DNA of 64,000 nt from Bifidobacteriaceae bacterium (GCA_031267825.1 JAIRYJ010000033.1:32519-96518); one strand, 5' to 3'. Shown: positions 8,451 to 34,239, numbered from the stretch's first letter. Numbers and translations are program-made. The notes: a model not told the origin generated them from the sequence alone.

Positions 8451-8463
8451 CAGCTTAGCCCAA

Positions 8464-8600: not shown

Positions 8601-8727
8601 AGTCGACCGAGTGGCCGTTTTGACCCCACTGGGTCAAGTTCCCGACCACCAAGTACTAACTCAGTCATGCCACCTGAACCACGCCCCTTGAAGCCCGCGC
8701 GACCAAATCATCCACCAAGTCACCGCC

Positions 8728-9822: not shown

Positions 9823-9824
9823 TC

Positions 9825-9838
9825 TGAAAACGTTATCA
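9825..9838. promoter_or_regulatory. LacI-type operator half-palindrome, site 1
   Basis: TGAAAACGTTATCA fits the TGnAAnCGnTTnCA style centred on CG. It lies between lacI-family gene and the ABC binding-protein gene. Confidence 0.55.
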
Positions 9839-9869
9839 AATCGTTGCCGGACAGACTTGCGAACCGTCT

Positions 9870-9884
9870 TGATAAACGTTTTCA
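9870..9884. promoter_or_regulatory. LacI-type operator, site 2
   Basis: TGATAAACGTTTTCA is the near reverse complement of site 1. It lies 45 bp downstream of site 1 and about 90 bp upstream of the binding-protein start. Confidence 0.55.
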
Positions 9885-9972
9885 TAGATCCATGGCCCTG
9901 ATGCGTACGCTTTGGGACCAGCCCGTGAGCGGCACGGACAGTCCGCGCCGCAACCGACCTTCATAAGGAGCA

Positions 9973-11292
9973 ATGATGCTGAAAAGAACCAGCCGGATTA
10001 CCTGCTCGGCGGCCGTCGCCGCCCTCCTGATAGGCCTCGCCGGATGCGGCGACAACAACGGCAGCGACACCAGCGACTCACCCGGCACTGACCAGGCCAG
10101 CCAGCCTGTCGCCTTACGTATGACGGTGTGGACCGGCAACGAGGACCACCTCTCCCTGTTCAACTCCATCGCCGATGAATATGTCGCCGCCAACGGCGAC
10201 AAAGTTTCCTCCGTAACCTTCGAAACCCTGCCCTACGACGAATACACCCAGACCCTGACAACCCAGATTTCCGGCGGCAACGCGCCTGACCTGGCCTGGA
10301 TCTTGGAAGCTTCCGGCCCTGAGTTTGTCGCCAGTGGCATCCTGTCCGATCTCAAACCAGCTCTAGAGTCGGCCGAGGGCTACAACCTTGATGAGGTTCT
10401 CGATTCGGCCCTCGCCTTGTGGCAGAAGGACGGCAGTATCTACGCCTATCCGTTCTCCAACTCGCCGTTCGGTGTCCTGGTCAACACCACCATGCTGACC
10501 GAGGCTGGCCAGCCGCTGCCGAAGGACCTGATCGCTTCGGGCGATTGGACCTGGGACAAGCTGCGCCAGATCAGTGCCGCCGCGGTCGCGGCCACTGGTA
10601 AGGGCGGCTTCTATCTGAGCGGCTTTGAATCCTATCTAGCCTGGCAGTTCATGGCCGAAGCGTGGGATTCGTGGGATGCTGCCCCGTGGAGCGCCGATGG
10701 CACCACCTGCACCTTCACGGACAAGCCAATGGTTGACTTCATGACCTGGTATCACGATGCCGTCTACGTTGACAACGCCATCCCGCAGCCGGGCGTTGTA
10801 TCCGATTTCTACGCTGGTGAAGCCGCCATGGTGACAGCTCAGATCTCGCGCGCCGCTGGGCTTGACGGATCCTTCGAATGGGATATTGTGCCGCTGCCCG
10901 AAGGGCCCGCTGGGCTTCACCCGGTGATCGGCCAGGCTGGCATCGGTGTGCTGGCTCAGGGCGCCAACCCAGCCGCCGCCGCCGATTTCCTGGCTTTCTT
11001 CACTAATCCAGCCAACTCAGCCAAGCTGGCGCAGTACTTCCCGCCGCCGCGCGAATCACTGCTCAACACTGACGTGCTGGGTGCGGCTAACCCACTGCTA
11101 ACCGCCGAACAGCTCCAGGCCGTGGTGATTGATCAGATGCCCGATGCCGTCACGCTGCCAAGCCACGTCGTTTTCGCGGAGGTGTCCGATGCCGCCCGCA
11201 TAGTTCTCGACGACCTCTGGACCGCGCAGGCGGACGTTCCAAGCGTCATGGCGAACATCTGCGAAGCCATCGATCCGCTGCTCGGAAACTAG
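9973..11292 (+). CDS. ABC sugar transporter substrate-binding lipoprotein
   Basis: 439 aa. Signal peptide with lipobox LIGLAGC and a family-1 extracellular solute-binding protein look. AAGGAG lies upstream of the ATG. Confidence 0.9.
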   Translation: MMLKRTSRITCSAAVAALLIGLAGCGDNNGSDTSDSPGTDQASQPVALRMTVWTGNEDHLSLFNSIADEYVAANGDKVSSVTFETLPYDEYTQTLTTQISGGNAPDLAWILEASGPEFVASGILSDLKPALESAEGYNLDEVLDSALALWQKDGSIYAYPFSNSPFGVLVNTTMLTEAGQPLPKDLIASGDWTWDKLRQISAAAVAATGKGGFYLSGFESYLAWQFMAEAWDSWDAAPWSADGTTCTFTDKPMVDFMTWYHDAVYVDNAIPQPGVVSDFYAGEAAMVTAQISRAAGLDGSFEWDIVPLPEGPAGLHPVIGQAGIGVLAQGANPAAAADFLAFFTNPANSAKLAQYFPPPRESLLNTDVLGAANPLLTAEQLQAVVIDQMPDAVTLPSHVVFAEVSDAARIVLDDLWTAQADVPSVMANICEAIDPLLGN

Positions 11293-11298
11293 GTTCTA

Positions 11299-12255
11299 GT
11301 GGCGCCGACAGCCAATCCGGCACCCGTCCGGCGGGCCGATGCCCGCCGGACGGGTGCCACCCGCAAGCCGCGCCGAAACGCGATGCGGCGGCGTGAAGCC
11401 CTAACTGGCTACCTGTTCATCACCCCGCAGCTAGCCGGTGCGATTGGCTTGGTGATAATTCCTCTGGTAGTGGTGTTCTATTACTCATTGCATGATTGGA
11501 ACGCACTGTCATCGTCTTTCACTTTTGTTGGCGCCGGCAATTACACCAAGCTGCTGGCTGACCCGTCATTCGCTGATTCTTTGGTCGCCTCGGCCTGGTT
11601 TTCCATTGGACTGGTGACACTGAATATTGTGCTGGCTTTGGCTCTGGCCGTGTTACTCAACCAACGTCTACCCGGCACCACACTATTCCGAACTTTCTTC
11701 TTCTCTCCGGTGATTGTTTCACTGGTCGCCTGGTCAATTGTTTGGAGTTTCCTGCTGCAATTCGACGGCGGCATTAACGGGTTCTTGTCGGCTGTTGGTA
11801 TCCAAGGACCTAACTGGCTGCGGACTGGTCCAACAGCCATGTTGTCAGTCATTGTGGTTCAGGTTTTCAAGAATGTTGGCTTGAACATGATTTTGTTCCT
11901 GGCCGCTCTCCAGTCGGTGCCGTTGGAACTGCGGGAAGCGGCCAGGATTGATGGTGCCCGCGCCTGGCGGGTTTTCCGGTCGATCACTTTGCCGCTGATC
12001 AGCCCAACGCTTCTGTTGGTTTCGATTATCACGGTGATCGGATCACTTGAGGTGTTCGCCCAGATCGCTGTGCTGACCGGTGGCGGGCCGGGTAATTCGA
12101 CCACTGTACTGGTGTTTTTCCTGTACCAGAAGGCATTCCGCTATCACCAGTTTGGTTATGCCAGCGCTGTTGGCGTGGTGTTGTTCGTGATTGTGCTGCT
12201 ACTTACCTTGGCTCAGTTCCAAACCAGGAGGAGGTGGGTTCATGATGAGGTCTGA
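11299..12255 (+). CDS. Carbohydrate ABC transporter permease (MalF/UgpA-like)
   Basis: 318 aa and multi-TM. EAA loop reads LELREAARIDGARAWRVFRSITLPL. Confidence 0.9.
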   Translation: MAPTANPAPVRRADARRTGATRKPRRNAMRRREALTGYLFITPQLAGAIGLVIIPLVVVFYYSLHDWNALSSSFTFVGAGNYTKLLADPSFADSLVASAWFSIGLVTLNIVLALALAVLLNQRLPGTTLFRTFFFSPVIVSLVAWSIVWSFLLQFDGGINGFLSAVGIQGPNWLRTGPTAMLSVIVVQVFKNVGLNMILFLAALQSVPLELREAARIDGARAWRVFRSITLPLISPTLLLVSIITVIGSLEVFAQIAVLTGGGPGNSTTVLVFFLYQKAFRYHQFGYASAVGVVLFVIVLLLTLAQFQTRRRWVHDEV

Positions 12256-13186
12256 TCAGACAGAACCTACGCCGTCGGGCCGTTCGACGGCCGGATCACC
12301 CACCAAGCAACCTGGCCGGTCAAAGGCGGTGAAACCGCGCCGGGCACATCCCCCAATTTGGTGGTGGAGCCGGATCTGTTTGTACGGCCTGATGGCGGTC
12401 ATGTCCATCCCGTTCGTTTTCCCGACAGCTTGGATGTTTCTGTCCTCCTTCAAGCCACAAGCTGAGTTGTTCCGTAAGCCCCCGGCACTGCTACCCGAAC
12501 ACTGGGTGCTTGAGCCGTACATCAACGCCATTACGACCCAGCCCTTCCTGCAGCAGTACTGGAACAGCGTCTATATAGCGACACTGGTAACGCTTGGAAC
12601 CTTGTTGTTTTCTTCGATGGCCGGATACGCCTTTGCCCGGATTCGTTTCCCTGGCGCTAACTTCCTATTCATGGTGGTGTTAGTCGGAATGATGATCCCG
12701 GCTGAGGTGACAATTGTTCCGTTGTACCGGGCAGCCAACGCACTGCATTTAGTGGATACGCATGTGCCCCTGATAGTGATCCCGATGCTTGGTGCGCCGT
12801 CTGTTCTAGCGACCTTCATTATGCGTCAGTTTTTCCTTGGCCTGCCAGGAGAACTGGAAGAGGCCGGACGTCTTGACGGATTGGGGAGGGTTGGAATATT
12901 CGCCCGGATCGCTTTACCGTTGTCTAAACCAGCTCTTAGCGCGGTCGCGATTATCACCTTCCTGAAATCCTGGAATCTGTATCTAGAACCCTTGGTCTTT
13001 GTTTCTACTAAAGCCAAGTTCACGTTGCCTGTCGGATTAACCCAATACCAGGACAGCTACGGTGAACTGCAATGGAACACACAACTAGCCGCCACCACCA
13101 TGACTGTGATTCCAGTGTTGTTGGTGTTCTTGTTCGCCCAAAGGCAGTTTGTTCAAGGGCTGGCTCAAACCGGGCTGAAAGGCTAA
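12242..13186 (+). CDS. Carbohydrate ABC transporter permease (MalG/UgpE-like)
   Basis: EAA loop reads LEEAGRLDGLGRVGIFARIALPL. I prefer the ATG at 12242, preceded by GGAGGAGG, over the track start at 12191. Confidence 0.9.
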   Translation: MMRSDQTEPTPSGRSTAGSPTKQPGRSKAVKPRRAHPPIWWWSRICLYGLMAVMSIPFVFPTAWMFLSSFKPQAELFRKPPALLPEHWVLEPYINAITTQPFLQQYWNSVYIATLVTLGTLLFSSMAGYAFARIRFPGANFLFMVVLVGMMIPAEVTIVPLYRAANALHLVDTHVPLIVIPMLGAPSVLATFIMRQFFLGLPGELEEAGRLDGLGRVGIFARIALPLSKPALSAVAIITFLKSWNLYLEPLVFVSTKAKFTLPVGLTQYQDSYGELQWNTQLAATTMTVIPVLLVFLFAQRQFVQGLAQTGLKG

Positions 13187-18414: not shown

Positions 18415-19944
18415 CTAATCCTCCACAATCTCCTGGCCGTCTGTCTCGGGTGCTGGCCACTCTTCCCGGTCCGGCGGCGTCCGCCCCCTGGAACTGTCTG
18501 TCTCGGGTGCTGGCAACTCTTCCCAGTCAGGCGGCGTCCGCCTCCTGGGGTTGTCCACCCCGGGTCCCGCCCGCCTCGCGGAACCATCCACCCCGGGCCC
18601 GGCTCGCCTCCGGGGCCGACTCGCGTCTCGTGTCGGCCAGTCATCCCCGTCAGGTCGCTCCTGTCCCGTCCGCCCGGCACCCCGTCCAGCCGCGGCGCCA
18701 TCGCGAGTAGCGCCGGTGGCATCTCGAGCACCACCCCGAGCCCCATCCAGAACGGTGGCCTGGCGCCGGCGGCGCCGACCCCTGAACACACTGGCCAAGC
18801 CAGCTAAACAAGCCACCACGATCAGCACCAAGCCAAGCCAAAACCAGGCGGCCAAGCGAAGCGTGACTTGACCGGTGGCGGCGGCTGGAGGGACGGCATC
18901 GTCCTGTTGACTGACAAGCGCGGCCCCAACCGAGACACGCCCTGTCACCTCAAACACCGCGAACACGCCATCAAGCGTCACCGCCCGGTCCAACCGCGAC
19001 CCTGGCAGCAACTCCGGCAAGTCGGCTGCCTCTCCGGCTAGCCCGCCAATCCCAGCCCAGCCGTCAAAACTGACCCGCTCAGTTGGGATTAGCCGAGTGT
19101 TGCCGGTGTTGGCCAGCTTGTAACGCAGATCGGCCCGCCCCCAGCCTGGCCTGCCCGGCGCTGGCGTCCAACGCATCCACACGTCTGTCACTTGCAAGGC
19201 TGGCGCGGCCGGGCCCGCCACGTTGACATAGGCCAGCACCGCGGTGGGCGGATCACTCAGCGGGTTACCCTGACTGGCGCCGTCCGTTTGTGTCTCAGCC
19301 AGGGCCGTCACCAAACCGGCGGCGTAATCGCCTGGGCTGGCATCAGCGGGCACCGTCACCTGGAACGGCACCGTGGCCGATGCTCCCGGGGCAAGCGTCA
19401 ACCTGATCGAGGCCTCGGTCGAGGTGTTGCCTTGCCCGCCGGACCGCCCAAAGGTGATCCAGTTACCGGCCCCGACGCGGGGTTGGCTGGCTGCCCCCAG
19501 CTCAGTTTGCCCGTCGCCGCCGGTGCGTCCGTCAACCGCGTAAATCCGCAGGTCAAGTGGCACGTCGCTGTTTGAGGTCAGTACGATGCCGTCCACCATG
19601 GTTCCGTCACCCGCCAGGTTGTAGTTGACGCTTGTCCGTTTCGTCCCATCAGCGTCATCTACTGGTGCCACCACCCAGGCGGTCTTGGCGCTGTCCGCTT
19701 CTTGGGGCTGCCCCGCCGCGGCCCCCGCTCTTTGTGGATGCCCTAGCGAAGCGATCGCATCTTGAGGCTGTCCCACCGAAGTCGCCATCTCTTGGGGCCG
19801 TCCTGCCGCAGCGCCCGCGACTCCCGCTATTCCGGTCTGTGCCGCGCCTGAACTGTCCGCCCAGGCGCCTGTCAGCGCCAATGCGGCCGCCAAGACCCCC
19901 ACCACCCGGACCTGTCTACTAGGCCGACCGCATCTAACTCTCAC
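18415..19944 (-). CDS. Secreted, C-terminally membrane-anchored protein with a repeat-rich cytoplasmic tail
   Basis: 509 aa. Signal peptide (VLAAALALTGAWA), a beta-rich ectodomain, a TM segment (FWLGLVLIVVACLAGLASVF), then an Arg/Pro-rich repeated tail. Confidence 0.6.
   Translation of the reverse strand: MRVRCGRPSRQVRVVGVLAAALALTGAWADSSGAAQTGIAGVAGAAAGRPQEMATSVGQPQDAIASLGHPQRAGAAAGQPQEADSAKTAWVVAPVDDADGTKRTSVNYNLAGDGTMVDGIVLTSNSDVPLDLRIYAVDGRTGGDGQTELGAASQPRVGAGNWITFGRSGGQGNTSTEASIRLTLAPGASATVPFQVTVPADASPGDYAAGLVTALAETQTDGASQGNPLSDPPTAVLAYVNVAGPAAPALQVTDVWMRWTPAPGRPGWGRADLRYKLANTGNTRLIPTERVSFDGWAGIGGLAGEAADLPELLPGSRLDRAVTLDGVFAVFEVTGRVSVGAALVSQQDDAVPPAAATGQVTLRLAAWFWLGLVLIVVACLAGLASVFRGRRRRRQATVLDGARGGARDATGATRDGAAAGRGAGRTGQERPDGDDWPTRDASRPRRRAGPGVDGSARRAGPGVDNPRRRTPPDWEELPAPETDSSRGRTPPDREEWPAPETDGQEIVED
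18439..18613. repeat. Coding tandem repeats (2 x about 55 bp, then 2 x 32 bp)
   Basis: gtctgtctcgggtgctggcMactcttccc... occurs twice (18439-18548), then ...tccaccccgggYcc... twice (18550-18613). They encode RTPPDxEEWPAPETD and RRAGPGVD repeats. Confidence 0.75.
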
Positions 19945-20051: not shown

Positions 20052-20903
20052 GTGAGTGAAGAAGCAGACCCGCGTTCGGAGGACACCCGATTCGATATTG
20101 ATCCGAGGGAGTATCTCAAAGCTGGGCTTCCCCGCCCGACCTGGGCCGGGCTATTTGAAGGCAGGCTGCCAGAACGCGTTCAAGTACCGGCCGGTCAAAT
20201 CCCTGACCTGTCTCAAGCGACCGCTGACGACGACAGCAACCCGTCGGTTTACACCGCTGTCGATCAAGACGGCCACCCAGTCGAGGTCGCCTTCGGCCGC
20301 ACCCACTACTATCTGACTAGACCAGCCCGTTGGAGTTTCAACACAAAGACTTGCGTCACCAAGACGGACCGCGCCATGCCACTCGGAGTCCTTGACTTAA
20401 CATTCGGCGAGTTCGGCCAAATCAAGCGTGACGGCGTCCACCTGAAACCGACCATAGATACCGCCACCATCGTCACCATTGACCTTTCTGTGCTCATCGC
20501 CGGGATGCGACCAACAAAGTTCCGCCCCGACGATGCGATCTTCGTATCAGCGGCCTTAGCCGTGGAGACCGCAAAGATACAGGCCTGGTACCCGCGGACA
20601 CCAATGCCTGGCCGAGGCGGAGCTACCTGGCGGCTGACAGTGCCAGTACCCATAGACACTGAAGTGGTCTTCGTCTACGAGAGATTAGTCCCACACGAGG
20701 CCGACAACCCAGAAATGCTTGAACGGGTTGACCTGCTATGTGCCGCCACGGCAATCGTTTACCGCTCTCCGATGTACACCACCAAGCCAGAAGCCTATAA
20801 GGGACTCAGCAAAGACCTGAAAGTCATCAAATATGGGGAAACCCGCAACCCTGACGCCCAAGACGAGGTCGCATGGCAACAGATAGTCGCTGGGCGGCGC
20901 TAA
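20052..20903 (+). CDS. Hypothetical protein (283 aa), no recognisable domain; partner of the downstream STAND NTPase
   Basis: Clean ORF with a GTG start. A decayed paralogous copy lies at 25690-26286. Confidence 0.6.
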   Translation: MSEEADPRSEDTRFDIDPREYLKAGLPRPTWAGLFEGRLPERVQVPAGQIPDLSQATADDDSNPSVYTAVDQDGHPVEVAFGRTHYYLTRPARWSFNTKTCVTKTDRAMPLGVLDLTFGEFGQIKRDGVHLKPTIDTATIVTIDLSVLIAGMRPTKFRPDDAIFVSAALAVETAKIQAWYPRTPMPGRGGATWRLTVPVPIDTEVVFVYERLVPHEADNPEMLERVDLLCAATAIVYRSPMYTTKPEAYKGLSKDLKVIKYGETRNPDAQDEVAWQQIVAGRR

Positions 20904-21022
20904 CCGTCCACAGGATGGGGCCTTCGAGTGGTTCACAACTCGCGGTTCACTGCTGGTTGGGTACTACTGGTCAGGCACTGTTTGTTGGGCGCGCTGCCCG
21001 CCAAGACGTTAGCGTGTGACTC

Positions 21023-24000
21023 ATGGCCGCAACCGGATCTGAGTCTGTCCGCCCGGGTCCCGGGCGGTCCTCGTTTACGCCTTTTGTGGTTGACCGTCAC
21101 ACCGAGCAACCTGACTGGGATATAGACCAAGCCGTGGCGGGTACCGCTGCGCCCTTGGCAGCCAGGGTGGCCGGAGTTTTGGGGGCTGATCCAGTCGGGT
21201 TGACGGAACCCGGCGCTGCTGGACCGTGGTGGCACCGGCCACGGGAGGACAACACCCGCCAACGGCTCCTGGAACGTTTGGCGGCCCTCGGGGAGGGTTC
21301 CCATCCGGTGGCTGACCAAGGCCGCGGCGTGGAACTGATCTATTGGCTGGGGTACGGCGGGGTGGATGAAACTGGACCGTATGTCGCCGCATCGGACACT
21401 AGTTCAGCCTCTGGCGTTGTTGAGGGACAGATCACCGCGCGGGAATTCGGCGATTGTCTGACAAAGATCCTGGAACGCGGCGGCCTGTTCCCTGTGTTGA
21501 TATTGGACATCCGCCACGGCGAGGCGTTCCTAGATGGCGTGCGGGCTGTCTTGGAGGAAGCCGCCATGCGGCACGGTAACGGCGGCGGCACTTGTAGCGA
21601 TGATCCATTCAGCCGCTATCTTCTGCTGACGGCCCCAACCCGGGGAAACGCCGCATTACCAGGTGAAACGCCTGGACGGATGCTGGACTTGATCAGCTAT
21701 GTGTTCCGGACAGAAACCCAGCTACCGGTCGCTGACCTGCTGGAGCGGATCAAACCAGAACAATTGATACACCACGAGGGTGCGGGGACACCTGAGCTGA
21801 TTCTCCAGTTGGACCAGGTTATGCCGCCACTGGGCCAGTCACTGGCTGACCAGGACAGTTTCAAGCTGACCGTTCAGGCCGCCGGGACAGGCATCACCGG
21901 TTTCTTCCAGCGAGGAGCTAGCTGGGAGGCAACAGCTGGCGAACTGGTATTGGATTTCACTGGCCGGGATGAGGAACGCGAGCAGATCGGCCGTTGGGTT
22001 ACTTCTGGCGAGGGCGGTCTGCTGGCAGTCGTGGGGGATCCGGGAACTGGCAAGTCGGCCCTGCTGGGGGATGTGGTGATGCGTGCCTCAGGTCCGCTCC
22101 GCCAAGCGTTGATTGATGCCGGTTTAGCTGAACCGTCGCAATGGGATGACATCCTGGCGGAGCACGGCTGGACGGCCACGGTGAACTTGACTGGGCTGGA
22201 TGCGGCCGAAGCGGCCGAAAGGCTGGGCGCTGAAGCGTTCAAAGACGATTGGGGCGAAGTCACGGCCGAAGCGGAGGACTGGTTGGCTAATGAAGGGCTG
22301 ACTGATGATTGGGCTAAAGCCGAATCCGCCAGGCAACGCGACCCTGTTAGGCGTTTGTTGTCGCTGGCGGACCAGGCGGAAGACCAGCGATTAGTGTTCA
22401 TTGTTGATGGTTTGGATGAATCGGTCCGGCCGTTCGAAGTGGCCGCCGACTTGTTATGTCCTCTAGCCAGGACCGGGTGGGTCACTGTGGTGGTCGGTAC
22501 AGGCCGATCCGTCAATTCCCAATCAGGCCAGACCGAGTTTGGTCCGTTTGATCTGGTGAACGCGCTAAACCCAGCCATGGTGATAGAACTCGACCGGGAC
22601 GCGGCGTCAATGCGCCGCTATCTGGCCGCCCGCCTGCTGCGAAAACTGGCGCCCGGGGCCGCCGCATCGAACGGAGACGATCCGCTAGGCGTACTGGTTG
22701 ACGACTTCGCCGGGCTAGTGGCCTCAGTTGCGGGACAGCCGTTCCTGTTCGCCCGGCTTTGCGCCGCTGAGGTTGAAACCGCCGACGACCCAGTGGCGTT
22801 GATGGAAGAGGCCTTGTCTGATGGTTTGGAACGAACTGTTGGTGGTGGTTGCGCGGAGGTATTCGGGCGCGCGCTGGACCGGATCGAGGCGGCCGCGCCA
22901 GGTAACCGGGCCCTGTTGGAGGCATTGGTTTTGAGTCTGGGACGGGGCGTGCCGCTGCGGGACAGTGTTTGGGCCACGATGGCGAAGGGGCTGGCCCCAG
23001 CGGGTGCACGGCTTGAGGCGGATACGGTTTTGGGTTTGTTGAAATCCCAGGCCAGCGCCTACATCCGCGCGGACATTGATTTGGGCCAGACTGTCTACCG
23101 GTTAGCGCACCGGTCTTTCGCGGAAACGGTCATGACACGGATGGCTTGTGGCGAGGCAAACCCGCCAGGTGCGGTCCGCTCAGCGCACCAGCGGGTCGTG
23201 GAAGCGCTGACCTTTGACGTTTTGGCGGCCCATACCGTGGACGATGCCGCCGGGCAGGCCAACAGCAGAACCGCCGGAGGACGTTGCGCAAGACCCATCC
23301 CGGACCAAGTTGACGCGACGCGGGCAAGTGACTCACCAGCCGAAACGCGGGAGACCGACATCGTTTGGTGTTCCATGAGCCCGTCATCAGACAGGCCACC
23401 AGGCCGCGTCAACCCGTATGTCGCCTATTACTTGCCAGCTCACTGCGGCATGAGTGGCCCCGATGGTTGGGGAATGGTTGAATCTCATCCCGAGGTGTTG
23501 GACTATCTGACGCCGAGCCGGGTGGCATCCTGTGCGCTCGGAGTCGCCAACGGGCCAGATAGGACACTACCGAACGTGGCGGCGGTGGCGGACGAGGAGT
23601 ATTTGCTGGGCCGCCTGGGGGATCTTGATCAGCGGGCACTGGTTCGCGAGTTGCAGGCCTGGTGTTATGGCACACCAGGTGGACGCGATTCAGCCGGGGT
23701 ACAAGGTGACCGGCCGTATGTCGTGTGGGCTGACCTGCTGGTGCACATCCCGCACCGGACCATCATGGGCCGTCAACCGGCGTACGCGTTGACGGCTGTG
23801 AAGGTGGGTGATCGGCCTTTGCTCGCCTCGGGCAGCGTCGACGGCACTGTCAGGCTTTGGGATCCGGTGACAGGTGAACTGGCGGCACCCGCACTCAAGG
23901 GCCACAGCGACGGGGTTGAAGCGCTGGCTGCGGTGGCCTTGCCGAACGGTCAGCGGCTGCTGGCCTCTGGCAGCTTTGATGGCACGGTCAAGCTGTGGGA

Positions 24001-25651
24001 TCTGGCAACCGGCCAACAGATTGGCCCCACATTTGAAGGCACCATCTACGGGTTCAGATCGCTGGCCGCACTGACCATGCCGGACGGTCGGGTGCTGCTT
24101 GCCGGAGGTAGTGACGATGGCACAGTCAGGTTGTGGGATCTGGCGACCTATCAACAGGTCGGCCCTGTGCTCGTCTGTCATTCTGGCCCCGTCGCGGCGT
24201 TGACCTCAGTGACCATGTCAGACGGCCGGGTGTTGCTTGCCTCAGGCGGTTTTGACGGGATGATCCGGTTTTGGGACCCAGTGACCAGCCAACAGGCCGG
24301 GCAAGCGCTCGCGGGTCACGAGAACGGAGTTCTCGCACTGACCACGGTGGCCTTGCCTGATGGCCGGGAACTACTCGCATCCAGCGGCGGTGACGTCACA
24401 TTTCGGTTGTGGGACCTAGTAGCGGGTCAACAGGTCAACCCTTCTTTCGAGGATCGCATCCAGCCGGCTGAAGCGCTGGCCGCGGTGACCGCCGACGGCC
24501 GGGAGTTACTCGTCTCGGGAGACATCGAAGGATTGATCCAATATTGGGATCCGGCTACTGGCGAACGAGTTGGTGGGTCGCTCAAGGGCCACACCACCAT
24601 AGTCAAGGGGCTGACCACAGTGACTGTGGACGGCCAGGGGCTGCTAGCCTCCAGCGGTGATGACGACATAATCCAGTTGTGGGGCCCAGGAACCAACCTG
24701 CGGGATGGTTCCGGACCAAAAGGCCGGGTCGGCCACGTCTGGGCGTTGGCAGCGGTGAACCTGCCGGACGGCCGGGAGCTGCTCGCTTCAGGCGGTGAAC
24801 GCGCCATGATCCGGCTGTGGGACCCGTTGACCGGTCAACAGATGAGCCAAGCGTCTGAGAATCCAACAGGCCAGGACGGAGCGTTGGCGGCGGTTTCAGT
24901 GAACGGCCGGGGATTACTCGTCCGCAGTCTTCCGGACGGCTTGGTTTGGTTATCGGATCCGGTAACTTTCGAGCCGGTTGGTCCCGGATTCAAGAGCCCA
25001 ACTGGCCAGGCTCAAAGATTGGCCTCATTGAACCTGCCCGATGGCCGGACGTTACTGGCCACTGGCGGTGAGGGCGGCACTGTCTGGTTGTGGGATCTAA
25101 CAAGCGACGAACGGGCGGGCCGTCCACTGAGAGATGAAACAGACTGGGTTCTGGCACTGGCCGCGGTAAACCTGCCGGACGGCAGGACACTATTCGCTTC
25201 GGCCAGTAACCATGGAACGATCCGGCTGTGGGATCCTGCGACCTGTGAACAAGCCATCTCGCCGATCAACAGTCACAACGGCTGCGTCTTCGCGCTGGCC
25301 GCTCTGACCATGCCTGACGGCCAGGAACTGCTCGTTTCCGGGGGCGACGACAGGATCATCCGGTTGTGGGATCCGGCAACCGGTGAACTGGCCGCCGCCC
25401 CGCTTAGGGATCAGCCACGCTCGGTAACCGAATTGGCGGCGATTGATCTACCTGACGGCCGACGACTGCTCGCCTCAGGCGGCGGCAACGCGCCGGTTCA
25501 GTTGTGGGGTGCGTCATCGTCCGGTCTCACGCCGCTGGCCGCGATCCACACGGCCACGGGAACTAGTTGCCTCGCCCCAGTTGGTTCAGGTCGGCTTGCC
25601 GTGGGCTTACAAACCGGCCTGGCCGTCTACGACCTCAATAGCATCCCGTAA
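21023..25651 (+). CDS. STAND NTPase: caspase-like N-terminal module + NACHT-type P-loop + helical arm + 14 WD40 repeats
   Basis: 1542 aa. Walker A is GDPGTGKS (22034-22057). Walker B is LVFIVDGLDES (22391-22423). 14 repeats of the type DGRxLLASGsxDGTvRLWD run from about 23770 to 25650, consistent with two 7-bladed propellers. Confidence 0.9.
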   Translation: MAATGSESVRPGPGRSSFTPFVVDRHTEQPDWDIDQAVAGTAAPLAARVAGVLGADPVGLTEPGAAGPWWHRPREDNTRQRLLERLAALGEGSHPVADQGRGVELIYWLGYGGVDETGPYVAASDTSSASGVVEGQITAREFGDCLTKILERGGLFPVLILDIRHGEAFLDGVRAVLEEAAMRHGNGGGTCSDDPFSRYLLLTAPTRGNAALPGETPGRMLDLISYVFRTETQLPVADLLERIKPEQLIHHEGAGTPELILQLDQVMPPLGQSLADQDSFKLTVQAAGTGITGFFQRGASWEATAGELVLDFTGRDEEREQIGRWVTSGEGGLLAVVGDPGTGKSALLGDVVMRASGPLRQALIDAGLAEPSQWDDILAEHGWTATVNLTGLDAAEAAERLGAEAFKDDWGEVTAEAEDWLANEGLTDDWAKAESARQRDPVRRLLSLADQAEDQRLVFIVDGLDESVRPFEVAADLLCPLARTGWVTVVVGTGRSVNSQSGQTEFGPFDLVNALNPAMVIELDRDAASMRRYLAARLLRKLAPGAAASNGDDPLGVLVDDFAGLVASVAGQPFLFARLCAAEVETADDPVALMEEALSDGLERTVGGGCAEVFGRALDRIEAAAPGNRALLEALVLSLGRGVPLRDSVWATMAKGLAPAGARLEADTVLGLLKSQASAYIRADIDLGQTVYRLAHRSFAETVMTRMACGEANPPGAVRSAHQRVVEALTFDVLAAHTVDDAAGQANSRTAGGRCARPIPDQVDATRASDSPAETRETDIVWCSMSPSSDRPPGRVNPYVAYYLPAHCGMSGPDGWGMVESHPEVLDYLTPSRVASCALGVANGPDRTLPNVAAVADEEYLLGRLGDLDQRALVRELQAWCYGTPGGRDSAGVQGDRPYVVWADLLVHIPHRTIMGRQPAYALTAVKVGDRPLLASGSVDGTVRLWDPVTGELAAPALKGHSDGVEALAAVALPNGQRLLASGSFDGTVKLWDLATGQQIGPTFEGTIYGFRSLAALTMPDGRVLLAGGSDDGTVRLWDLATYQQVGPVLVCHSGPVAALTSVTMSDGRVLLASGGFDGMIRFWDPVTSQQAGQALAGHENGVLALTTVALPDGRELLASSGGDVTFRLWDLVAGQQVNPSFEDRIQPAEALAAVTADGRELLVSGDIEGLIQYWDPATGERVGGSLKGHTTIVKGLTTVTVDGQGLLASSGDDDIIQLWGPGTNLRDGSGPKGRVGHVWALAAVNLPDGRELLASGGERAMIRLWDPLTGQQMSQASENPTGQDGALAAVSVNGRGLLVRSLPDGLVWLSDPVTFEPVGPGFKSPTGQAQRLASLNLPDGRTLLATGGEGGTVWLWDLTSDERAGRPLRDETDWVLALAAVNLPDGRTLFASASNHGTIRLWDPATCEQAISPINSHNGCVFALAALTMPDGQELLVSGGDDRIIRLWDPATGELAAAPLRDQPRSVTELAAIDLPDGRRLLASGGGNAPVQLWGASSSGLTPLAAIHTATGTSCLAPVGSGRLAVGLQTGLAVYDLNSIP

Positions 25652-25689
25652 CCCGACCACTGGCGGCATCTCACCCAGTCAGCGATCAG

Positions 25690-26286
25690 CCGAAGCGCGA
25701 TCTCGAGAACTATGACGGGCAAAGGCCGGGCATCCCCGGCCGACCTACACGGGCCAATTCGATGCCAGGCTGCCTGCCCGCGTCCAGTTGCCAGCCGGGC
25801 AGAACCCGGATCTTTCACAAGTGACCGCCGACAGTGACGACAGACCATGGGCGTAAACGGCTGTCGATCAAGACGGCCACCCAGTCGAGGTCGCCTTCAG
25901 CCGCACGCACCACTGCCTGACTAGACCGGCCCGTTGGAGCTTCAACACAAAGACTCCCGTCACCGAGACGGCCCGCGCCGTCCCACTCGGAGTCCTTGAC
26001 TTAACATTCGGCGAGTTCGGCCAAATCAAGCGTGACGGCGTCCACCTGAAACCGACCATGGATACCGCCGCCACCGTCACAATCGACCTATCCGTCGAAA
26101 CTGGAACAGGTCGATTTCCTGTGTGCCGCCACGGCTATCGTTTACCGCTCTGAGATGTATTCCCTCAGGCCTGAAGTCTATAAGGGACTCAGCCAAGACC
26201 TGATAGTCATCGAGTATGGCGAAACCCGCAACCCTGACGCCCAAGTCCCGGACTCATTGGAGTCCTTCTTCCCTGACCTGTCCTAA
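25690..26286 (+). pseudogene. Decayed paralogue of the 283-aa gene at 20052-20903
   Basis: About 90% nucleotide identity by eye over the aligned core (25861-26095 vs 20256-20490), including a roughly 78-nt identical block. In-frame TAA at 25854-25856. A deletion of about 230 bp relative to 20490-20715 causes a frameshift. Confidence 0.75.
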
Positions 26287-26447: not shown

Positions 26448-28697
26448 CTACTTGGAGGCCGGTTCGAGGCCGGATTCATCCGGGATCCGGTCCGCTGAGA
26501 TGCGGCGGCGGAAGACCCAAATTGACCAAGCCTGATAGGCCAGCACAATCGGCACCAAGCAGGCGGCCACAATGGTCATCAGCTTGAGTGTCAACGGGCT
26601 GGAGGCCGCGGCGAAGATCGGCTGACCGGTGATGACATCACCGCTTTCGAACTCAACCAGATCGGTGTGCTCTTGCAGCAAACCAAGCGATACCAGAGCG
26701 TTGAGAGCCTTGTTGGCGTTGACAACCCTGTCATTCAGGTTGGCCAAACCGGCCTCATTGTTCCAGTCGACACCCGAGATTTCGGGGTCGTTGCTGGTGA
26801 CAACCGCTGTGATATCTAGACCATCATGGAAGGTCTGGGTTGCCGGGTTATCGGCCACACTCTGGAGCGTGGCGACAACGTAACCGTCCGGCGTGGGCGA
26901 GACAACCTGGCCCACACTCTTGGCGATTTCTGGCACCAGTGCTTCAACCGTGTTCGCGATTTGCGGTACACAGGCTTCAATGGTGATCGCGACTTGCGCT
27001 GCCACATCGGCTGCGGGCAGGCCACCAATGGTGGCGCTACCGGCTTGGATGTCAGCCACAATCTGGCCGACTAGAGCATCAGTCGGTTCGATCCCCAAAC
27101 GCAGCAGCGTGATCTTAACCGTGGTCACAACGTTGTCCTGGGAGATGACCTGAGCCGCCGGGAAGGTCCCGGAAGCCACGTCAGCCAGTACAGCGTTGGT
27201 TATGGCTGTCGCCAGTGGGCTGGCTTCTAGGCCAACACCAATCTGGGACAAGTCAGCGACATGCGCACCAACCCGGGCGAAGGTGATGTCAACAACGTCC
27301 TTGACGTTGTCAACTGGGATAACGCCGCGAGCCGGGAATACTCCGTCCCTGACGTCTTCCAGAACACCAACTGTCACCTTGGTTGCCAGGTCGCCGGCTG
27401 TTACGCCAACACCCACATCAGCCAAATTGACGCCACTGGCCTTGACCCGGTCAAAGGTCGCGACCACAGTCGACTCAACATCACCTTGCGGGATCAGATC
27501 AATTGCCGGATAGGACACAACCGCGACGTCTTCCAGGATGCCGGTGGTCAGTTCAACGGCCTTGTCGCTCGGTGCGTCTGGCACCGTGGGCAGGCCTTCA
27601 TTCCTGACCTTGTCGAAGGTTCCGGCTACAACGTCATCAAGTGTGACGCCGTCAAGAACCACCGCGCCGACAATCGGATCAGCTATCGCGTCACCATGAA
27701 TGGTGACCCGTGAACCGTTGATGACGTTGGGGAACAAACCAGCGAAGATCGTCACAACCGCCGCTAGCAGTGCGACTGTCATCGCACCGAAGGCCAGGCC
27801 GAACTTCTTGGCCAGTGTGGTCAGTACTACAACCACTAGGGCCAGGGCCGCCAAGCCAATGGCGATCCAGACTATGACTGTCGGATGGTTGCCGCCGACA
27901 TACTTCAGGCCAAGCCAAACAACCCAAACCGCGGCGATGACCGTAGCCACAATCGACAGTTTGGGTGCCAGCGCCTCAGACCGCTGCCGTACTACGCCAT
28001 CGGTCTTGAGTGACAGGAAGATTGACCCGTGCGCCAAGAAGAGCGCTGCTGTGGTCAAGCCGCCCAGCAGCAAGAAGCCGGCATGGCCGAATACGAGGTC
28101 CCAGAAGGTGCCGTCGTAGAGGATCTTTGTTGGGCCCAGCTGAGCTGGGTCGACCGCTGCTTTGACACCAGACACCAAGTTGGCGAAGGCTACGCCCCAC
28201 AGGACAGCGGGGATCCAGGAACCGAGGATGATGCACCAGTCCCAAACCTTGCGCCAAGTGTCGGAGTTGATCTTGCCGCGATATTCGAAAGCCACCGCCC
28301 TGATAATCAAACCAACCAGAATCAGGAACAACGGCAGATAAGCGGCCGAGAACAGCGTGGCGTACCATTCCGGGAAAGCGGCGAAGGTGGCGCCACCAGC
28401 GGTCAGCACCCAAACTTCATTGCCGTCCCAGAGCGGGCCGATGGTCGAAAGCATGGCCCGGCGTTCTTTGTCCTTCTTACCGATGAACGGCAGAAGCATG
28501 CCGACGCCGAAGTCGAAGCCTTCCAGTACCAGGTAGCCGGTCCACAGGACCGCGATCAAAATGAACCACAAGAGCTGCAGCGCGGTTGGCGTTTCAGCCA
28601 GACGGTGCAGCAAACCTACTAGACCCTGAGCAGTGCTCTCAGTTACCTGAGGATCGACTGGGGCCGCGGAAACGAACGCGAGAACGTTACTCAACAT
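26448..28697 (-). CDS. cydB: Cytochrome bd ubiquinol/menaquinol oxidase subunit II with a large extracytoplasmic insertion
   Basis: 749 aa. CydB signatures are WFILIAVLWTGYLVLEGFDFGVGML, GPLWDGNEVW and the C-terminal AAASSPLTLKLMTIVAACLVPIVLAYQAWSIWVFRRR. AAGGAG lies 7 nt before the ATG at 28697, and the gene starts 19 nt after the cydA stop. Confidence 0.9.
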   Translation of the reverse strand: MLSNVLAFVSAAPVDPQVTESTAQGLVGLLHRLAETPTALQLLWFILIAVLWTGYLVLEGFDFGVGMLLPFIGKKDKERRAMLSTIGPLWDGNEVWVLTAGGATFAAFPEWYATLFSAAYLPLFLILVGLIIRAVAFEYRGKINSDTWRKVWDWCIILGSWIPAVLWGVAFANLVSGVKAAVDPAQLGPTKILYDGTFWDLVFGHAGFLLLGGLTTAALFLAHGSIFLSLKTDGVVRQRSEALAPKLSIVATVIAAVWVVWLGLKYVGGNHPTVIVWIAIGLAALALVVVVLTTLAKKFGLAFGAMTVALLAAVVTIFAGLFPNVINGSRVTIHGDAIADPIVGAVVLDGVTLDDVVAGTFDKVRNEGLPTVPDAPSDKAVELTTGILEDVAVVSYPAIDLIPQGDVESTVVATFDRVKASGVNLADVGVGVTAGDLATKVTVGVLEDVRDGVFPARGVIPVDNVKDVVDITFARVGAHVADLSQIGVGLEASPLATAITNAVLADVASGTFPAAQVISQDNVVTTVKITLLRLGIEPTDALVGQIVADIQAGSATIGGLPAADVAAQVAITIEACVPQIANTVEALVPEIAKSVGQVVSPTPDGYVVATLQSVADNPATQTFHDGLDITAVVTSNDPEISGVDWNNEAGLANLNDRVVNANKALNALVSLGLLQEHTDLVEFESGDVITGQPIFAAASSPLTLKLMTIVAACLVPIVLAYQAWSIWVFRRRISADRIPDESGLEPASK

Positions 28698-30906: not shown

Positions 30907-33900
30907 GTGGGGTACCCAACGCGCCGTGGAGCATTCGTGACTGAAGATCAAACGCAATTCCAGATTGAACTGCCCGCACCCGTTAGGCGCGCCCCGCGCA
31001 GGGCTGCCAAATCCCAAACCAAACCCAGCTTGGCTGATCTTGACTCGCTGTTGGACCTGCCGGGCGGCTCCCAGGACACCCCTGACGCCGCGGCTAGTGC
31101 GGCTCAGCGGCCAAGGACACGCCGGGCCAGCAGGGCTACCCAAACCAGTCCGGGCACCAGCACCAGCCAGGAGGCGGCGGCTGCGGGCGTTGGCCAGGCC
31201 AGCCCACCAGAGGCGGGCCCAGATACGGCCACAGGCGCCAGCGGCTCCGGTCGCGGCCGGGCCACCAGGCGTAGCACCAGGTCAGCCGCCAGCCCAGACG
31301 CGGGCGAAGATACGGCCACAGGCGCCAGCGGTTCCGGTCGCGGCCGGGCCTCCAGGCGTAGCACCAGGTCAGCCGCCAGCCCAGACGCGGGTACGATGCC
31401 GTCCCCCGGCTCACAGCCCACCGTCTTGGAGGCAGCACCGACAGCGGGCGCCGTTTCGGAGCAGAGTCAGGCCGCACCTGGTGCGGCTCAGCGGCCAAGG
31501 ACACGCCGGGCCAGCCGGGCTACCCAAGTCGGCCGAACGACTGGCGGCGAACAAAACGCCGAATCGACCGGGATGGGCTCCAGCCAAGCGGCGGCCGCGG
31601 GCGTTGGCCAGGCCAGCACATCAGACGCGGGCCAAGATACGGCCACAGGCGCCAGCGGCTCCGGTCGCGGCCGGGCCACCAGGCGGAGCACCAGACCGGC
31701 CGCCAGACCGGCGAAGGCCGACCAGGGCGAGGCCACCAGAACCGGGCAAGACCAAACAGCCGGGACCGGGCAGGATGCGGCCGCCGGAACCGGCGCCACA
31801 GCGGCACAGGCAGCGGTGGCCGGAGCCAGCCAGGAGGCCGAAATCACCGGTTCGGGATTGGACCAGTCCGGTTTGGGATTGGGCCAGTCCGGGACTGGCC
31901 CGGACGCCGACCCGGCGGTTCGCCCAAGGGGACGTTCACGCCGCGCCACAGCACCAGCCGTCACGCCGCCACCGGCCATCACGCCGCCACCGGCCGACCA
32001 GCCGAACGGGTCCACCACCGCCCCAGCTAACCTTCAGACCGCATCCGAATCGGCTGGCCCAGATCAGACCGACACCGCGTCAGACGCAACATCCGTGGCT
32101 GACCACGAAACCACAACAGGCGCCAGCCCGCCAGGCCGGCGCCTGACAATGACCGCACTGCTGTTCCAAGCCCCAACGGCGGCCCCCGCCTTGGCCCGCG
32201 CCAAGCGGGCCAAGGCGGGCGAACCGCCAGTCGGCGCCGCCACCACACAAACCGCAGCCACATCCGGCGGGCCAAGCGGACCAGGCGGACCAGGCGGACC
32301 AGGGGGACCAGGGGGATCAAGCGGACCAAACGGATCGAGCGGATCAGGCGGGCCAAACGGATCAGGCGCCGCCAGGCAAGGCACGGCCGGAAAACCACCA
32401 GCCGGTCAGGCGCCAGCCAAAGCGGGCCGCCGCGCCACCTCCAAAACTCAAACCACTCAAACCGAACCAGGAGCGACAACCGGGGAGACGGCATCGGACA
32501 AACAACCGACCGGCACCGAACCAGACGATTCGGAAGACGCCAGCTCACGCCGCCGCCGCCGGCGCAACCGGACCGGACGCAAAACCGAAACAACCGGCGA
32601 AGTCTCATCAGAAGGTGTTACCGCCCTGGCCGGTTCAACCCGGCTTGAAGCCAAACGCCAACGGCGCAAAGAAAGCCGCGACGGCGGCAGGCGGCGCACC
32701 CCAATCACCGAAGCCGAATTCCTCGCCCGGCGCGAATCAGTTGACCGCCGCATGGTGGTACGCGAATCTGACGGCCGCACCCAGATCGCCGTCCTAGAAG
32801 ACGGTGTTTTGGTAGAACATCACGTCGCCCGGCGAACCCAACATTCACTGGTCGGCTCAATCTACTTAGGCCGGGTACAAAACGTTCTGCCCTCAATGGA
32901 GGCGGCCTTCGTTGACATTGGGCGTGGACGTAACGCTGTGCTCTACGCCGGTGAAGTCAACTGGGACGCGGCCGGGCTGGAAGGCCAACCACGGCGGATC
33001 GAACAAGCCTTATCCTCCGGTGACGCGATCATGGTGCAAGTCACCAAAGACCCGATCGGCCATAAAGGTGCCCGCCTGACCTCACAGATCACCCTGGCCG
33101 GACGTTACCTGGTGCTGGTGCCAGGCGGCGGAATGACCGGCATTTCACGCAAACTGCCAGACGCTGAACGCACCAGGCTGAAAAAACTGCTCAAAGAGAT
33201 CGTGCCTGAAGGTGTCAGTGTGATCGTCCGGACAGCGGCCGAAGGCGCCAGCCAAGCTGAACTGGTGGCGGACGTCGCCCGGCTGACCGCTTCTTGGGAG
33301 AAAGCCAAGCTCAAAGCCGCCACCGCCCACGCCCCAGCCCTCCTTAAGGGTGAGCCTGATTTGGCGATCCGGGTGGTGCGGGACATTTTCAACGACGATT
33401 TCAGTTCGCTCACAATCTCAGGTCAGGCCGCCTGGCAAGAAATCACCGCCTACCTTGATGAAGTCGCCCCAGAGTTGCGTGGCCGTGTCACGCAATGGGT
33501 CTCCGACCAGGACATTTTTGCCGCCGACCGGATTGACGAACAGTTAGCCAAAGGCATGGACCGCAAAGTCTGGCTGCCGTCGGGCGGGTCGCTGGTGATC
33601 GACCGGACCGAAGCGATGACTGTGATCGACGTCAACACCGGTAAGTTCACCGGTTCTGGTGGCACGCTTGAAGAAACGGTGACGCGCAACAACTTGGAAG
33701 CGGCCGAAGAGATCGTGCGCCAGTTACGCCTCCGCGACATCGGCGGGATCATTGTTATCGACTTCATTGATATGGTCCTCGAATCGAACCGTGACCTGGT
33801 GTTACGCCGCCTGGTTGAGGCTTTGTCCCGTGACCGGACACGCCATCAGGTAGCTGAGGTGACATCGCTTGGACTGGTTCAAATGACCCGCAAACGGGTT

Positions 33901-34239
33901 GGCCAGGGGCTGGTTGAAGCTTTCTCTGAAACCTGTGAGGTTTGTGGTGGGCGCGGTTTCATAGTTCACAGTCATCCAGTCGAACGCGCCTCGAGTGGTG
34001 CGGCCGCCGGGGGTGGCCCTAGCGTGAGCCCAGGGCCGGAAGGCACCAAGCGCAAGAAGCGGGGCGGCAAGAAACACAAGAAGAAGTCGCCCGATGCCGC
34101 CGGGTCGTCTTCCGAGCCCACCTCAGGCGGGGTAGGCGCCATGCCCGCCGCTGTTGTGTCTGAATCCACCGCTGAGGTCAAGGCCGCTTTGGCTTCAATC
34201 GTGGCGGCGGCTACCGCCGCCCGCGAACAGGCCAACTAA
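30907..34239 (+). CDS. rne: Ribonuclease E/G family endoribonuclease with a ~560-aa disordered Arg/Ala/Thr/Gly-rich N-terminal region
   Basis: 1110 aa. S1 domain plus catalytic core from about residue 590 (LVGSIYLGRVQNVLPSMEAAFVDIG, LVIDRTEAMTVIDVNTG, GGIIVIDFIDM, CxxCxGRG). Basic C-terminal tail. The exact start is uncertain. Confidence 0.9.
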   Translation: MGYPTRRGAFVTEDQTQFQIELPAPVRRAPRRAAKSQTKPSLADLDSLLDLPGGSQDTPDAAASAAQRPRTRRASRATQTSPGTSTSQEAAAAGVGQASPPEAGPDTATGASGSGRGRATRRSTRSAASPDAGEDTATGASGSGRGRASRRSTRSAASPDAGTMPSPGSQPTVLEAAPTAGAVSEQSQAAPGAAQRPRTRRASRATQVGRTTGGEQNAESTGMGSSQAAAAGVGQASTSDAGQDTATGASGSGRGRATRRSTRPAARPAKADQGEATRTGQDQTAGTGQDAAAGTGATAAQAAVAGASQEAEITGSGLDQSGLGLGQSGTGPDADPAVRPRGRSRRATAPAVTPPPAITPPPADQPNGSTTAPANLQTASESAGPDQTDTASDATSVADHETTTGASPPGRRLTMTALLFQAPTAAPALARAKRAKAGEPPVGAATTQTAATSGGPSGPGGPGGPGGPGGSSGPNGSSGSGGPNGSGAARQGTAGKPPAGQAPAKAGRRATSKTQTTQTEPGATTGETASDKQPTGTEPDDSEDASSRRRRRRNRTGRKTETTGEVSSEGVTALAGSTRLEAKRQRRKESRDGGRRRTPITEAEFLARRESVDRRMVVRESDGRTQIAVLEDGVLVEHHVARRTQHSLVGSIYLGRVQNVLPSMEAAFVDIGRGRNAVLYAGEVNWDAAGLEGQPRRIEQALSSGDAIMVQVTKDPIGHKGARLTSQITLAGRYLVLVPGGGMTGISRKLPDAERTRLKKLLKEIVPEGVSVIVRTAAEGASQAELVADVARLTASWEKAKLKAATAHAPALLKGEPDLAIRVVRDIFNDDFSSLTISGQAAWQEITAYLDEVAPELRGRVTQWVSDQDIFAADRIDEQLAKGMDRKVWLPSGGSLVIDRTEAMTVIDVNTGKFTGSGGTLEETVTRNNLEAAEEIVRQLRLRDIGGIIVIDFIDMVLESNRDLVLRRLVEALSRDRTRHQVAEVTSLGLVQMTRKRVGQGLVEAFSETCEVCGGRGFIVHSHPVERASSGAAAGGGPSVSPGPEGTKRKKRGGKKHKKKSPDAAGSSSEPTSGGVGAMPAAVVSESTAEVKAALASIVAAATAAREQAN
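31207..31380 (+). repeat. 87-bp coding tandem repeat x2, with a diverged third copy near 31617-31700
   Basis: Units start at 31207 and 31294, and a further partial unit starts at 31381. They encode P(E/D)AG(P/E)DTATGASGSGRGRA(T/S)RRSTRSAAS. Confidence 0.85.
32267..32366 (+). repeat. 9-bp-period microsatellite-like coding repeat (ggaccaggc variants)
   Basis: Encodes GGPSGPGGPGGPGGPGGSSGPNGSSGSGGPNGSG within the RNase E disordered region. Confidence 0.75.

Follow-up and report, generated by a model that had tools for sequence, protein, structure and literature searches.

A 64,000-nucleotide (nt) stretch of the genome of a Bifidobacteriaceae bacterium (GCA_031267825.1, JAIRYJ010000033.1:32519-96518; below, the window) holds two co-oriented open reading frames (ORFs) on the + strand, the first for a 283-amino-acid (aa) PIN-like protein (20052-20903) and the second, after a gap of 120 nt, for a 1542-aa protein (21023-25651) in which a caspase fold is joined to a STAND NTPase and WD40 repeats. 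A broken second copy of the 283-aa gene adjoins the 1542-aa ORF on its downstream side (about 25709-26286), leaving the STAND gene bracketed by intact and decayed copies of the PIN-like gene. The best explanation of this arrangement is that two unrelated conflict-type genes have been juxtaposed, rather than that they form a conserved two-gene NLR system, and we lean towards the view that the locus derives from a hydrolase/caspase-STAND-WD40 kill switch, now orphaned and dead as a protease, placed between the intact and decayed copies of an autonomous PIN-like gene. A first-pass annotation of the window had held that the STAND protein could not be mapped to a named system; the NLR-like conflict-system setting that it proposed is upheld, and the kind of system, a caspase-STAND/propeller protein with an alpha/beta-hydrolase, has been described (PMC7159879, PMC12642450). 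The architecture is thus of an already known kind, of which the window holds a degenerate or rewired variant. An apparently unassigned NLR locus has become a clear case of a protease-effector defence module decaying or rewired, with the effector gene lost, three catalytic codons one base off and the 4.6-kilobase (kb) sensor gene still open.

The features of the STAND gene, in order, are:

21023..25651, + strand: 1542-aa caspase-fold/STAND NTPase/WD40 protein (ORF, homologue alignment, model)
21023..21955, + strand: caspase-fold domain, aa 1 to about 311, predicted catalytically dead (Foldseek; homologue P0014 near Peptidase_C14)
21353..21355, + strand: codon Y111 (TAC) at the catalytic His position (WxGHG in 46/47 homologues)
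21512..21514, + strand: codon R164 (CGC) at the catalytic Cys position ((D/E)xC in 46/47 homologues)
21956..22522, + strand: P-loop NTPase, NACHT-like STAND (Pfam; Walker A at 22034-22057, Walker B at 22397-22420)
22203..22313, + strand: 51-nt internal tandem duplication within an acidic, Trp-rich insert (DNA repeat; homologues without the insert)
22502..22504, + strand: codon G494 (GGC) at the sensor-1 Arg position ((G/S)-T-R in all 49 other sequences)
22523..23782, + strand: helical arm, the winged-helix/helical domains of the NOD module (alignment, columns 893-960)
23783..25648, + strand: 14 WD40 blades (Pfam WD40/beta-propeller models; DNA repeat period 135-138 nt)

Homologues of the STAND protein were collected with its first 920 residues, and 79 loci from species-representative genomes were compared; a word-indexed homology search with aa 1-325 returned nothing, homologues appearing only with the 920-aa query. 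The closest homologues are from metagenome-assembled genomes (MAGs) of uncultured Bifidobacteriaceae and Propionibacteriaceae (33-38% identity), with more distant ones in Thermopolyspora, Streptomyces, Kitasatospora and other actinomycetes. Judged by these sequences, the protein belongs to an actinobacterial caspase-STAND(NACHT-like)-WD40 family with an LCAT-like hydrolase as its usual operon partner. Counting the same-strand genes that a simple gene caller placed within 300 nt upstream of a STAND homologue, 31 of 38 were from one homologous family (about 470–620 aa), and the seven others look, by eye, like unrelated housekeeping genes. The gap between hydrolase and STAND genes mostly falls between -5 and +20 nt, and in the normal operon the two genes are translationally coupled. 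Members of the partner family share the motifs PGIMGS, AHSMGG, GDGTV and QQH and match Pfam LCAT at 35.7–39.3 bits (cut-off 21), with weaker matches to PGAP1 and DUF676; the LCAT score and the motifs together indicate a lipase-like alpha/beta-hydrolase with a Ser-Asp-His triad. The partner is present in all of the nearest relatives (loci L007, L009, L010 and L011, of which L010 has two tandem pairs), and it lies upstream of the homologues P0014 (38% identity to the window protein), L009 and L010 (33–37%). In L010, a Propionibacteriaceae MAG, the two hydrolase plus caspase-STAND-WD40 pairs are consecutive (2791-12805), each with an apparent overlap of 5 nt. A profile of 29 partner sequences found no match and no remnant of a hydrolase among the six-frame ORFs of the window, and PADLOC 2.0 matched neither the STAND homologues nor the hydrolase partners.

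The loss of the partner is accompanied by substitution of three residues that are otherwise nearly invariant in an alignment of 50 sequences, 47 homologues among them having the caspase domain. The window protein reads WLGYGG at the catalytic His (H111Y) and LDIRHG at the catalytic Cys (C164R), where its nearest relatives have DACRG, and its sensor-1 motif is GTG (R494G) against (G/S)TR in 49/49 others. Each of the three codons, TAC, CGC and GGC, is one base off a codon for the conserved residue. An Arg at position 495 directly follows G494 and may compensate for R494G. Elsewhere the protein is not eroded: both Walker motifs are intact, the frame stays open over 4.6 kb, and 52 of 56 other highly conserved positions are kept, the four deviations being within the range of the intact homologues. 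This conservation outside the three residues, with the open frame, fits a putative pseudo-enzyme, or function lost only very recently, better than an old pseudogene. The first-pass annotation had called the N-terminus caspase-like, which is right for the fold; for the catalytic dyad it is not, as both His and Cys are substituted.

One other homologue with a dead dyad was identified, a 1909-aa protein of a Streptosporangiaceae MAG (L023, 5548-11274), in which the His is replaced by Arg and the Cys by Ser and which is likewise without a hydrolase partner. It adds a second, independent case of an orphan STAND protein with a pseudo-caspase domain; the upstream neighbour of its gene resembles a PfkB-type sugar kinase.

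By analogy with the characterised hydrolase–caspase pair in the literature, the WD40 sensor of the intact family would bind an invader-derived ligand, the NTPase/NOD module would oligomerise, the caspase domain would cleave the hydrolase zymogen and the cell would die. In this genome the circuit is broken at several points, as the hydrolase gene is gone and the protein carries H111Y, C164R and R494G. If the STAND protein is still functional, it would be a natural pseudo-caspase NLR, useful for examining roles of caspase domains beyond cleavage. Such a role could be regulatory: the dead STAND would act as a dominant-negative or decoy for an active paralogue plus hydrolase elsewhere in the genome, co-oligomerising with the paralogue or soaking up its ligand, and the PIN-like genes would be bystanders. 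Inactive enzyme domains have been proposed as decoys or dominant-negative regulators, as a theme of conflict systems (PMC7159879), tandem paralogous pairs are known in the near relative L010, and conservation holds across the protein except at its catalytic residues. Neither a paralogue nor a hydrolase occurs within the 64-kb window, however, and the case is purely inferential; this reading is improbable.

The remaining architecture of the STAND protein agrees with the first-pass description of a NACHT-style P-loop, a helical arm and 14 regular WD40 blades. Walker A is GDPGTGKS (aa 338-345) and the NACHT-type Walker B is FIVDGLDES (aa 459-467), with Pfam matches over the P-loop to AAA_16 (40.9 bits, cut-off 32.6) and NPHP3_N (25.6 bits, cut-off 24.8); Pfam NACHT itself (PF05729) gave 19.3 bits, below its gathering cut-off of 26.7. 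Comparison of the NOD module with PDB sequences gave no meaningful match. The acidic, Trp-rich insert between the Walker motifs, reported with three DDW/EDW motifs, does carry KDDW, AEDW and TDDW. The insert arose partly by an internal 51-nt duplication, whose two units (22203-22253 and 22263-22313) are 71% identical and are in part missing from the homologues. The helical arm contains a low-complexity insert of ~45 aa that is specific to the window protein. The 14 blades, each 45–46 aa, probably form two beta-propellers with a presumed sensor role.

The N-terminal 320 residues, modelled with the homologues, reached a predicted local distance difference test score (pLDDT) of 67.6. Foldseek aligned this domain with the MALT1 paracaspase, the yeast metacaspase Yca1, Arabidopsis metacaspase 9 and caspase-3 (E about 1e-4), and the homologue P0014 approached Pfam Peptidase_C14 (E 3e-4, 21.0 bits against a cut-off of 21.4). 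The public calls of the STAND gene are shorter, at 1505 aa (NCBI) and 1440 aa (JGI) with starts at 21134 and 21329, and both remove the first beta-strand of the caspase fold. Support for a start at the ATG at 21023 (1542 aa) comes from the segment SFTPFVV, whose counterpart in the alignment with P0014 is CFTPLVV and which forms a strand in the model.

The 283-aa ORF, in which the first-pass annotation recognised no motif, is predicted to encode a divergent PIN protein of the VapC type that is extended N-terminally by ~135 aa and is presumably a Mg-dependent RNase. Its gene and the decayed copy comprise:

20052..20903, + strand: intact PIN-like gene, 283 aa (GTG start; ORF call; VapC fold match; family Pfam PIN matches)
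20052..20456, + strand: N-terminal extension, ~135 aa, beta-rich (family alignment; motif YL(K/R)AGLPRP conserved)
20457..20840, + strand: PIN core, aa about 136-263 (Foldseek and invariant acidic columns)
25709..26286, + strand: PIN-like pseudogene (two stops; 221-nt deletion, junction 26095/26096)

An AlphaFold2 model of the 283-aa protein, built on the family alignment, had a mean pLDDT of 60, with block means of about 50–89 over the PIN core (lower in the 175-197 loop) and low confidence in the N-terminal extension. The best Foldseek match of this model was Mycobacterium tuberculosis VapC-5 (3dbo_B; E 7.6e-6, template modelling score 0.70, target-normalised), and ranks 1–35, comprising every match with E < 0.05, were all VapC, FitB or archaeal PIN proteins. 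Three acidic positions (D144, D227 and E247) do not vary across the family and a fourth, E172, is either E or D; the canonical fourth Asp after T-x is replaced in the 283-aa protein (TTKPE). Searches of the 283-aa protein against Pfam, NCBIfam, PADLOC and the PHROGs gave nothing significant, including no match to Pfam PIN (PF01850), and its N-terminal extension matched nothing in Pfam, PHROG or PADLOC. Pfam PIN was, however, matched by 7 of 12 aligned family members (best E 1e-5), the closest homologue, P0027, scored 23.3 bits against a cut-off of 23.6, and NCBI names the Cellulomonas soli homologues as VapC family toxin or PIN domain-containing proteins. Used as a sequence profile against the PDB, the family alignment yielded a chance match only.

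The PIN-like family is small, uncharacterised and actinobacterial: an indexed search recovered 12 homologues, and exhaustive scanning of 1.84 billion proteins gave 58 clusters when grouped at 50% identity. Short forms resemble the window protein, long forms (Cellulomonas) add a helical C-terminal domain of ~200 aa, and two distant members (P0029 and P0033) continue C-terminally into an RCC1-like beta-propeller of seven blades; a split-gene version of the extension of the long forms was not found among the neighbours of the homologues. The genomic contexts of the family were compared at 12 loci, 11 of them independent (L001-L006, L088-L093). P0027, from an uncultured-bacterium MAG and 47% identical to the window protein, is a single ORF (L090, 7287-8831) of two tandem PIN-like units, directly adjacent and 55% identical to each other, that runs off the contig end; it directly follows a Phd/YefM-PIN pair and an RHH-PIN pair, a toxin-antitoxin neighbourhood. 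P0029 (L091, 6616-8757) has among its neighbours an RTX-repeat protein and a Schlafen/AlbA_2-HATPase protein, and its neighbourhood looks like a defence island. On a further metagenomic contig (L093) the PIN-like gene lies between paralogous genes (6-332 and 1444-2109; 53% identity over 81 aa); here too, duplicated genes stand on either side of a family member. The window shares no synteny with the L090 or L091 contigs beyond the PIN-like gene itself.

A VapB-type antitoxin gene is absent upstream of the PIN-like gene in the window, where 107 nt are followed by a divergent gene, and no small neighbour is conserved across the 11 homologous loci, so the family has no recognisable antitoxin. The N-terminal extension may serve as a built-in regulator. 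The homologues, which occur solo, among toxin-antitoxin pairs or joined to C-terminal domains of their own, appear to act autonomously, and the same most likely holds for the PIN-like protein of the window, as a predicted RNase-type toxin or defence effector. With its 58 clusters, a conserved N-terminal extension, a C-terminal module that is absent, helical or an RCC1 propeller, and no antitoxin, the family is a candidate for a toxin or defence module that consists of one gene.

The downstream copy, described in the first-pass annotation as a frameshifted, internally deleted version of the upstream gene, is confirmed as decayed (67–92% identity, two stops and a 221-nt deletion). The segment 20105-20870 aligns with about 25709-26257 far beyond chance; the copy has no start codon and has in-frame stops at 25713-25715 (TGA) and 25854-25856 (TAA), and the deletion (equivalent to 20492-20712) takes out the PIN catalytic core and breaks the frame. 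Identity between the copies is uneven, at 67–68% at the 5' end, 90–92% in 20260-20497 and 79–87% at the 3' end, and this unevenness suggests that the gene was duplicated long ago and that gene conversion later acted on the middle of the copies. The simplest history of the site starts from a tandem PIN-like pair, with the STAND gene coming to lie between the copies and the downstream copy decaying with partial gene conversion. The tandem units of L090, with nothing between them, make such a pair a plausible ancestral state, and the family appears to have a tendency to duplicate in tandem.

That the two genes constitute a conserved system was the proposal of the first-pass annotation, which saw a novel two-gene NLR system of a 283-aa partner and an effector-less STAND protein. 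PADLOC run on the locus gave no significant model match (for the STAND protein only mad8, E 0.0015, 16 bits, over the P-loop), NCBIfam and PHROG have no model that recognises either protein of the pair, and the 283-aa family is small and uncharacterised, all of which would suit a new system. The partner is a PIN domain, however, another partner, conserved and described before, goes with the STAND family, and the expected co-occurrence failed in both directions: a profile from 50 STAND homologues found no STAND gene in any of the 12 PIN-like loci, and the PIN-like profile matched in 0 of the 79 STAND loci. The PIN–STAND adjacency occurs in no other locus examined, the pairing so far being unique to the window, and a conserved two-gene system is very unlikely.

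A newly formed functional pair merits more weight, while still being unlikely. Here the PIN-like RNase would have become the effector of the STAND protein after loss of the hydrolase, with activation by proximity and not by cleavage: the WD40 repeats would bind a phage protein, the NOD module would oligomerise and the dead caspase domain would dock the N-terminal extension of the PIN-like protein, so that clustering or release from autoinhibition would yield an active RNase and abortive infection. The genes are adjacent and co-oriented, the STAND ORF is intact with loss confined to catalytic residues, the signature of a pseudo-enzyme, and inactive caspases have been proposed as peptide-binding or dominant-negative modules (PMC7159879). 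The PIN-like family is also modular, with RCC1 propeller or ~200-aa helical fusions, and the host-like codon-position G+C of both genes would make them long-term co-residents. Set against this are the nil co-occurrence elsewhere in both directions, the 120-nt gap without translational coupling, the loss of the sensor-1 Arg, the dead-caspase homologue in L023, which is solo and has no effector-like neighbour, and the N-terminus of the PIN-like protein, which is unlike the hydrolase partner (no similarity to that family was found). A shared terminal motif between the partner and the N-terminus of the NLR, of the BASS-like amyloid signalling type, was not seen by eye, with no formal test made. 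It is doubtful, and slightly more so, that a VapC-like PIN RNase specifically replaced a hydrolase zymogen as the death effector of an Apaf-1-like sensor, with the caspase domain retained as a non-catalytic dock; if true, the switch from protease-licensed to recruitment or proximity activation would be an observable intermediate in NLR effector exchange.

The reading of two juxtaposed, unrelated genes is favoured further by the spacing, as the 120-nt gap between the PIN-like and STAND genes compares with an overlap or a gap of ≤20 nt in most hydrolase–STAND pairs. Several points nonetheless weigh against it. The STAND protein probably still has some role, and that role could involve its only co-oriented neighbour: a frame of 1542 codons at 62% G+C is hard to keep without selection, and the deviation outside the three residues is no greater than in intact homologues. 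It is an odd coincidence for unrelated genes that the same PIN-like gene flanks the STAND gene on both sides, and the fusion of two distant PIN-like members to RCC1 propellers indicates that PIN-like modules can work with propellers. Co-occurrence was moreover judged on distant homologues, the collections holding no close relative, and several contigs with a PIN-like gene are short or end at that gene, L090 stopping inside its second unit.

Beyond the pair, the chromosomal setting is ordinary. The flanking genes are of chromosomal or housekeeping type (a sugar ABC transporter, an FAD oxidoreductase and a xanthine/uracil-type permease), followed by a gene for a 509-aa protein without a Pfam match and then cydB, cydA and RNase E. 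The first-pass remark that neither a tRNA nor an integrase is adjacent extends to the whole 64-kb window, which contains zero tRNAs, zero Rfam matches and no integrase. G+C at third codon positions (GC3) is 0.64 and 0.67 in the two genes, compared with 0.58–0.76 in host genes (genome G+C 62%) and 0.75–0.9 in the actinomycete homologues; being host-like in both genes, it argues that neither is a recent import. A mobile-element origin was considered and rejected on this host-like G+C, the lack of tRNA, integrase and Rfam matches, and the lack of any plasmid or phage match, tblastn of the PIN-like protein against plasmid and phage collections finding none. The window lies on a 98-kb contig from a poorly sampled actinobacterium. 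Clusters at 90% identity held only alternative gene calls of the same window proteins, with a conserved 426-aa protein being a singleton, and no sequencing runs covering the region were found.

Three of the neighbouring genes have unusual features of their own. The 509-aa ORF (18415-19944, - strand) is divergent from the PIN-like gene over the 107-nt spacer; its product has a signal-like segment at the N-terminus, a hydrophobic stretch towards the C-terminus and a repetitive tail rich in Arg, Pro and Gly. The ORF for CydB (cytochrome bd subunit II; 26448-28697, - strand) is 749 aa long and the Pfam CydB model (~300 positions) matches it in two stretches, the best at aa 40-336, a pattern that indicates an insertion of roughly 350–400 aa, rich in V/A/D/G repeats, inside or after the conserved core. 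Within the RNase E ORF (30907-34239), positions 31000-33000 have a G+C of 0.66–0.73 and an AT skew of +0.4, corresponding to a long low-complexity N-terminal region before the catalytic RNase_E_G domain (aa 729-998).

Among known systems, bNACHT and Avs proteins resemble the window STAND in having a STAND NTPase, a repeat sensor and a NACHT-like Walker B, but the window protein has no significant PADLOC match and no fused nuclease, TIR or other active effector. The bacterial gasdermin plus caspase-like protease system was rejected as a counterpart, as the neighbour is a PIN fold in the window and an alpha/beta-hydrolase in the homologues. The VMAP ternary conflict systems (Kaur et al. 2020) likewise keep a caspase-fold domain in a conflict protein after loss of the dyad, and inactive caspase domains have been proposed as peptide-binding or dominant-negative modules in such related systems (PMC7159879); the window, however, lacks MoxR, vWA and VMAP, and inactivity is the exception (2/47) in the STAND family. 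For the 283-aa protein, the closest known proteins are the VapC toxins of type II toxin-antitoxin systems (M. tuberculosis VapC-5, PDB 3DBO), with which it shares the PIN fold in its C-terminal half and, in its closest homologue, a position beside two canonical antitoxin-PIN pairs; its acidic residues D144, E172, D227 and E247 are putatively those of the active site. It differs in the N-terminal extension of ~135 aa, in the lack of an adjacent VapB-like antitoxin, which holds for its homologues too, and in those family members that have their own C-terminal helical or RCC1 domains.

The domain order of the STAND protein, caspase-like, NOD and WD40 propellers, is that of the described caspase-NOD-WD40 clades, to which it is likened by architecture; its Walker B is of NACHT type (DGLDE), its Pfam matches are AAA_16 and NPHP3_N, and its protease is dead. 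In NTP-dependent conflict systems the caspase domain always occurs with a neighbouring alpha/beta-hydrolase gene (Kaur et al. 2020; PMC7159879). The hydrolase of Lysobacter is a zymogen that is cut by its linked caspase-like protease at two R|G sites, leading to cell death, and such proteases, fused to beta-transducin repeats and STAND NTPases, are widespread in Actinobacteria (Evans et al. 2025; PMC12642450). The LcHydrolase/LcCaspase pair of Lysobacter capsici (PMC12642450; predicted in PMC7159879) is thus the nearest comparison: the caspase fold in the window is fused to STAND and beta-transducin (WD40) modules, its homologues carry a coupled upstream alpha/beta-hydrolase, and the family is actinobacterial, as that paper describes. 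The window, in contrast, has no hydrolase gene and a substituted dyad, so proteolytic licensing cannot operate there, and a protein with Y111 and R164 is expected neither to cleave a partner nor to cause cell death by doing so. The LCAT-like partners, at about 500 aa, are longer than LcHydrolase, and no conserved R-G cleavage dipeptide was found in their family; the LCAT-like hydrolase and caspase-STAND form the same kind of pairing as in Lysobacter, without a claim to the same family. Present in dozens of actinomycete genomes, the operon of LCAT-like hydrolase and caspase-STAND-WD40 protein provides natural material for tests of the zymogen model outside Lysobacter.

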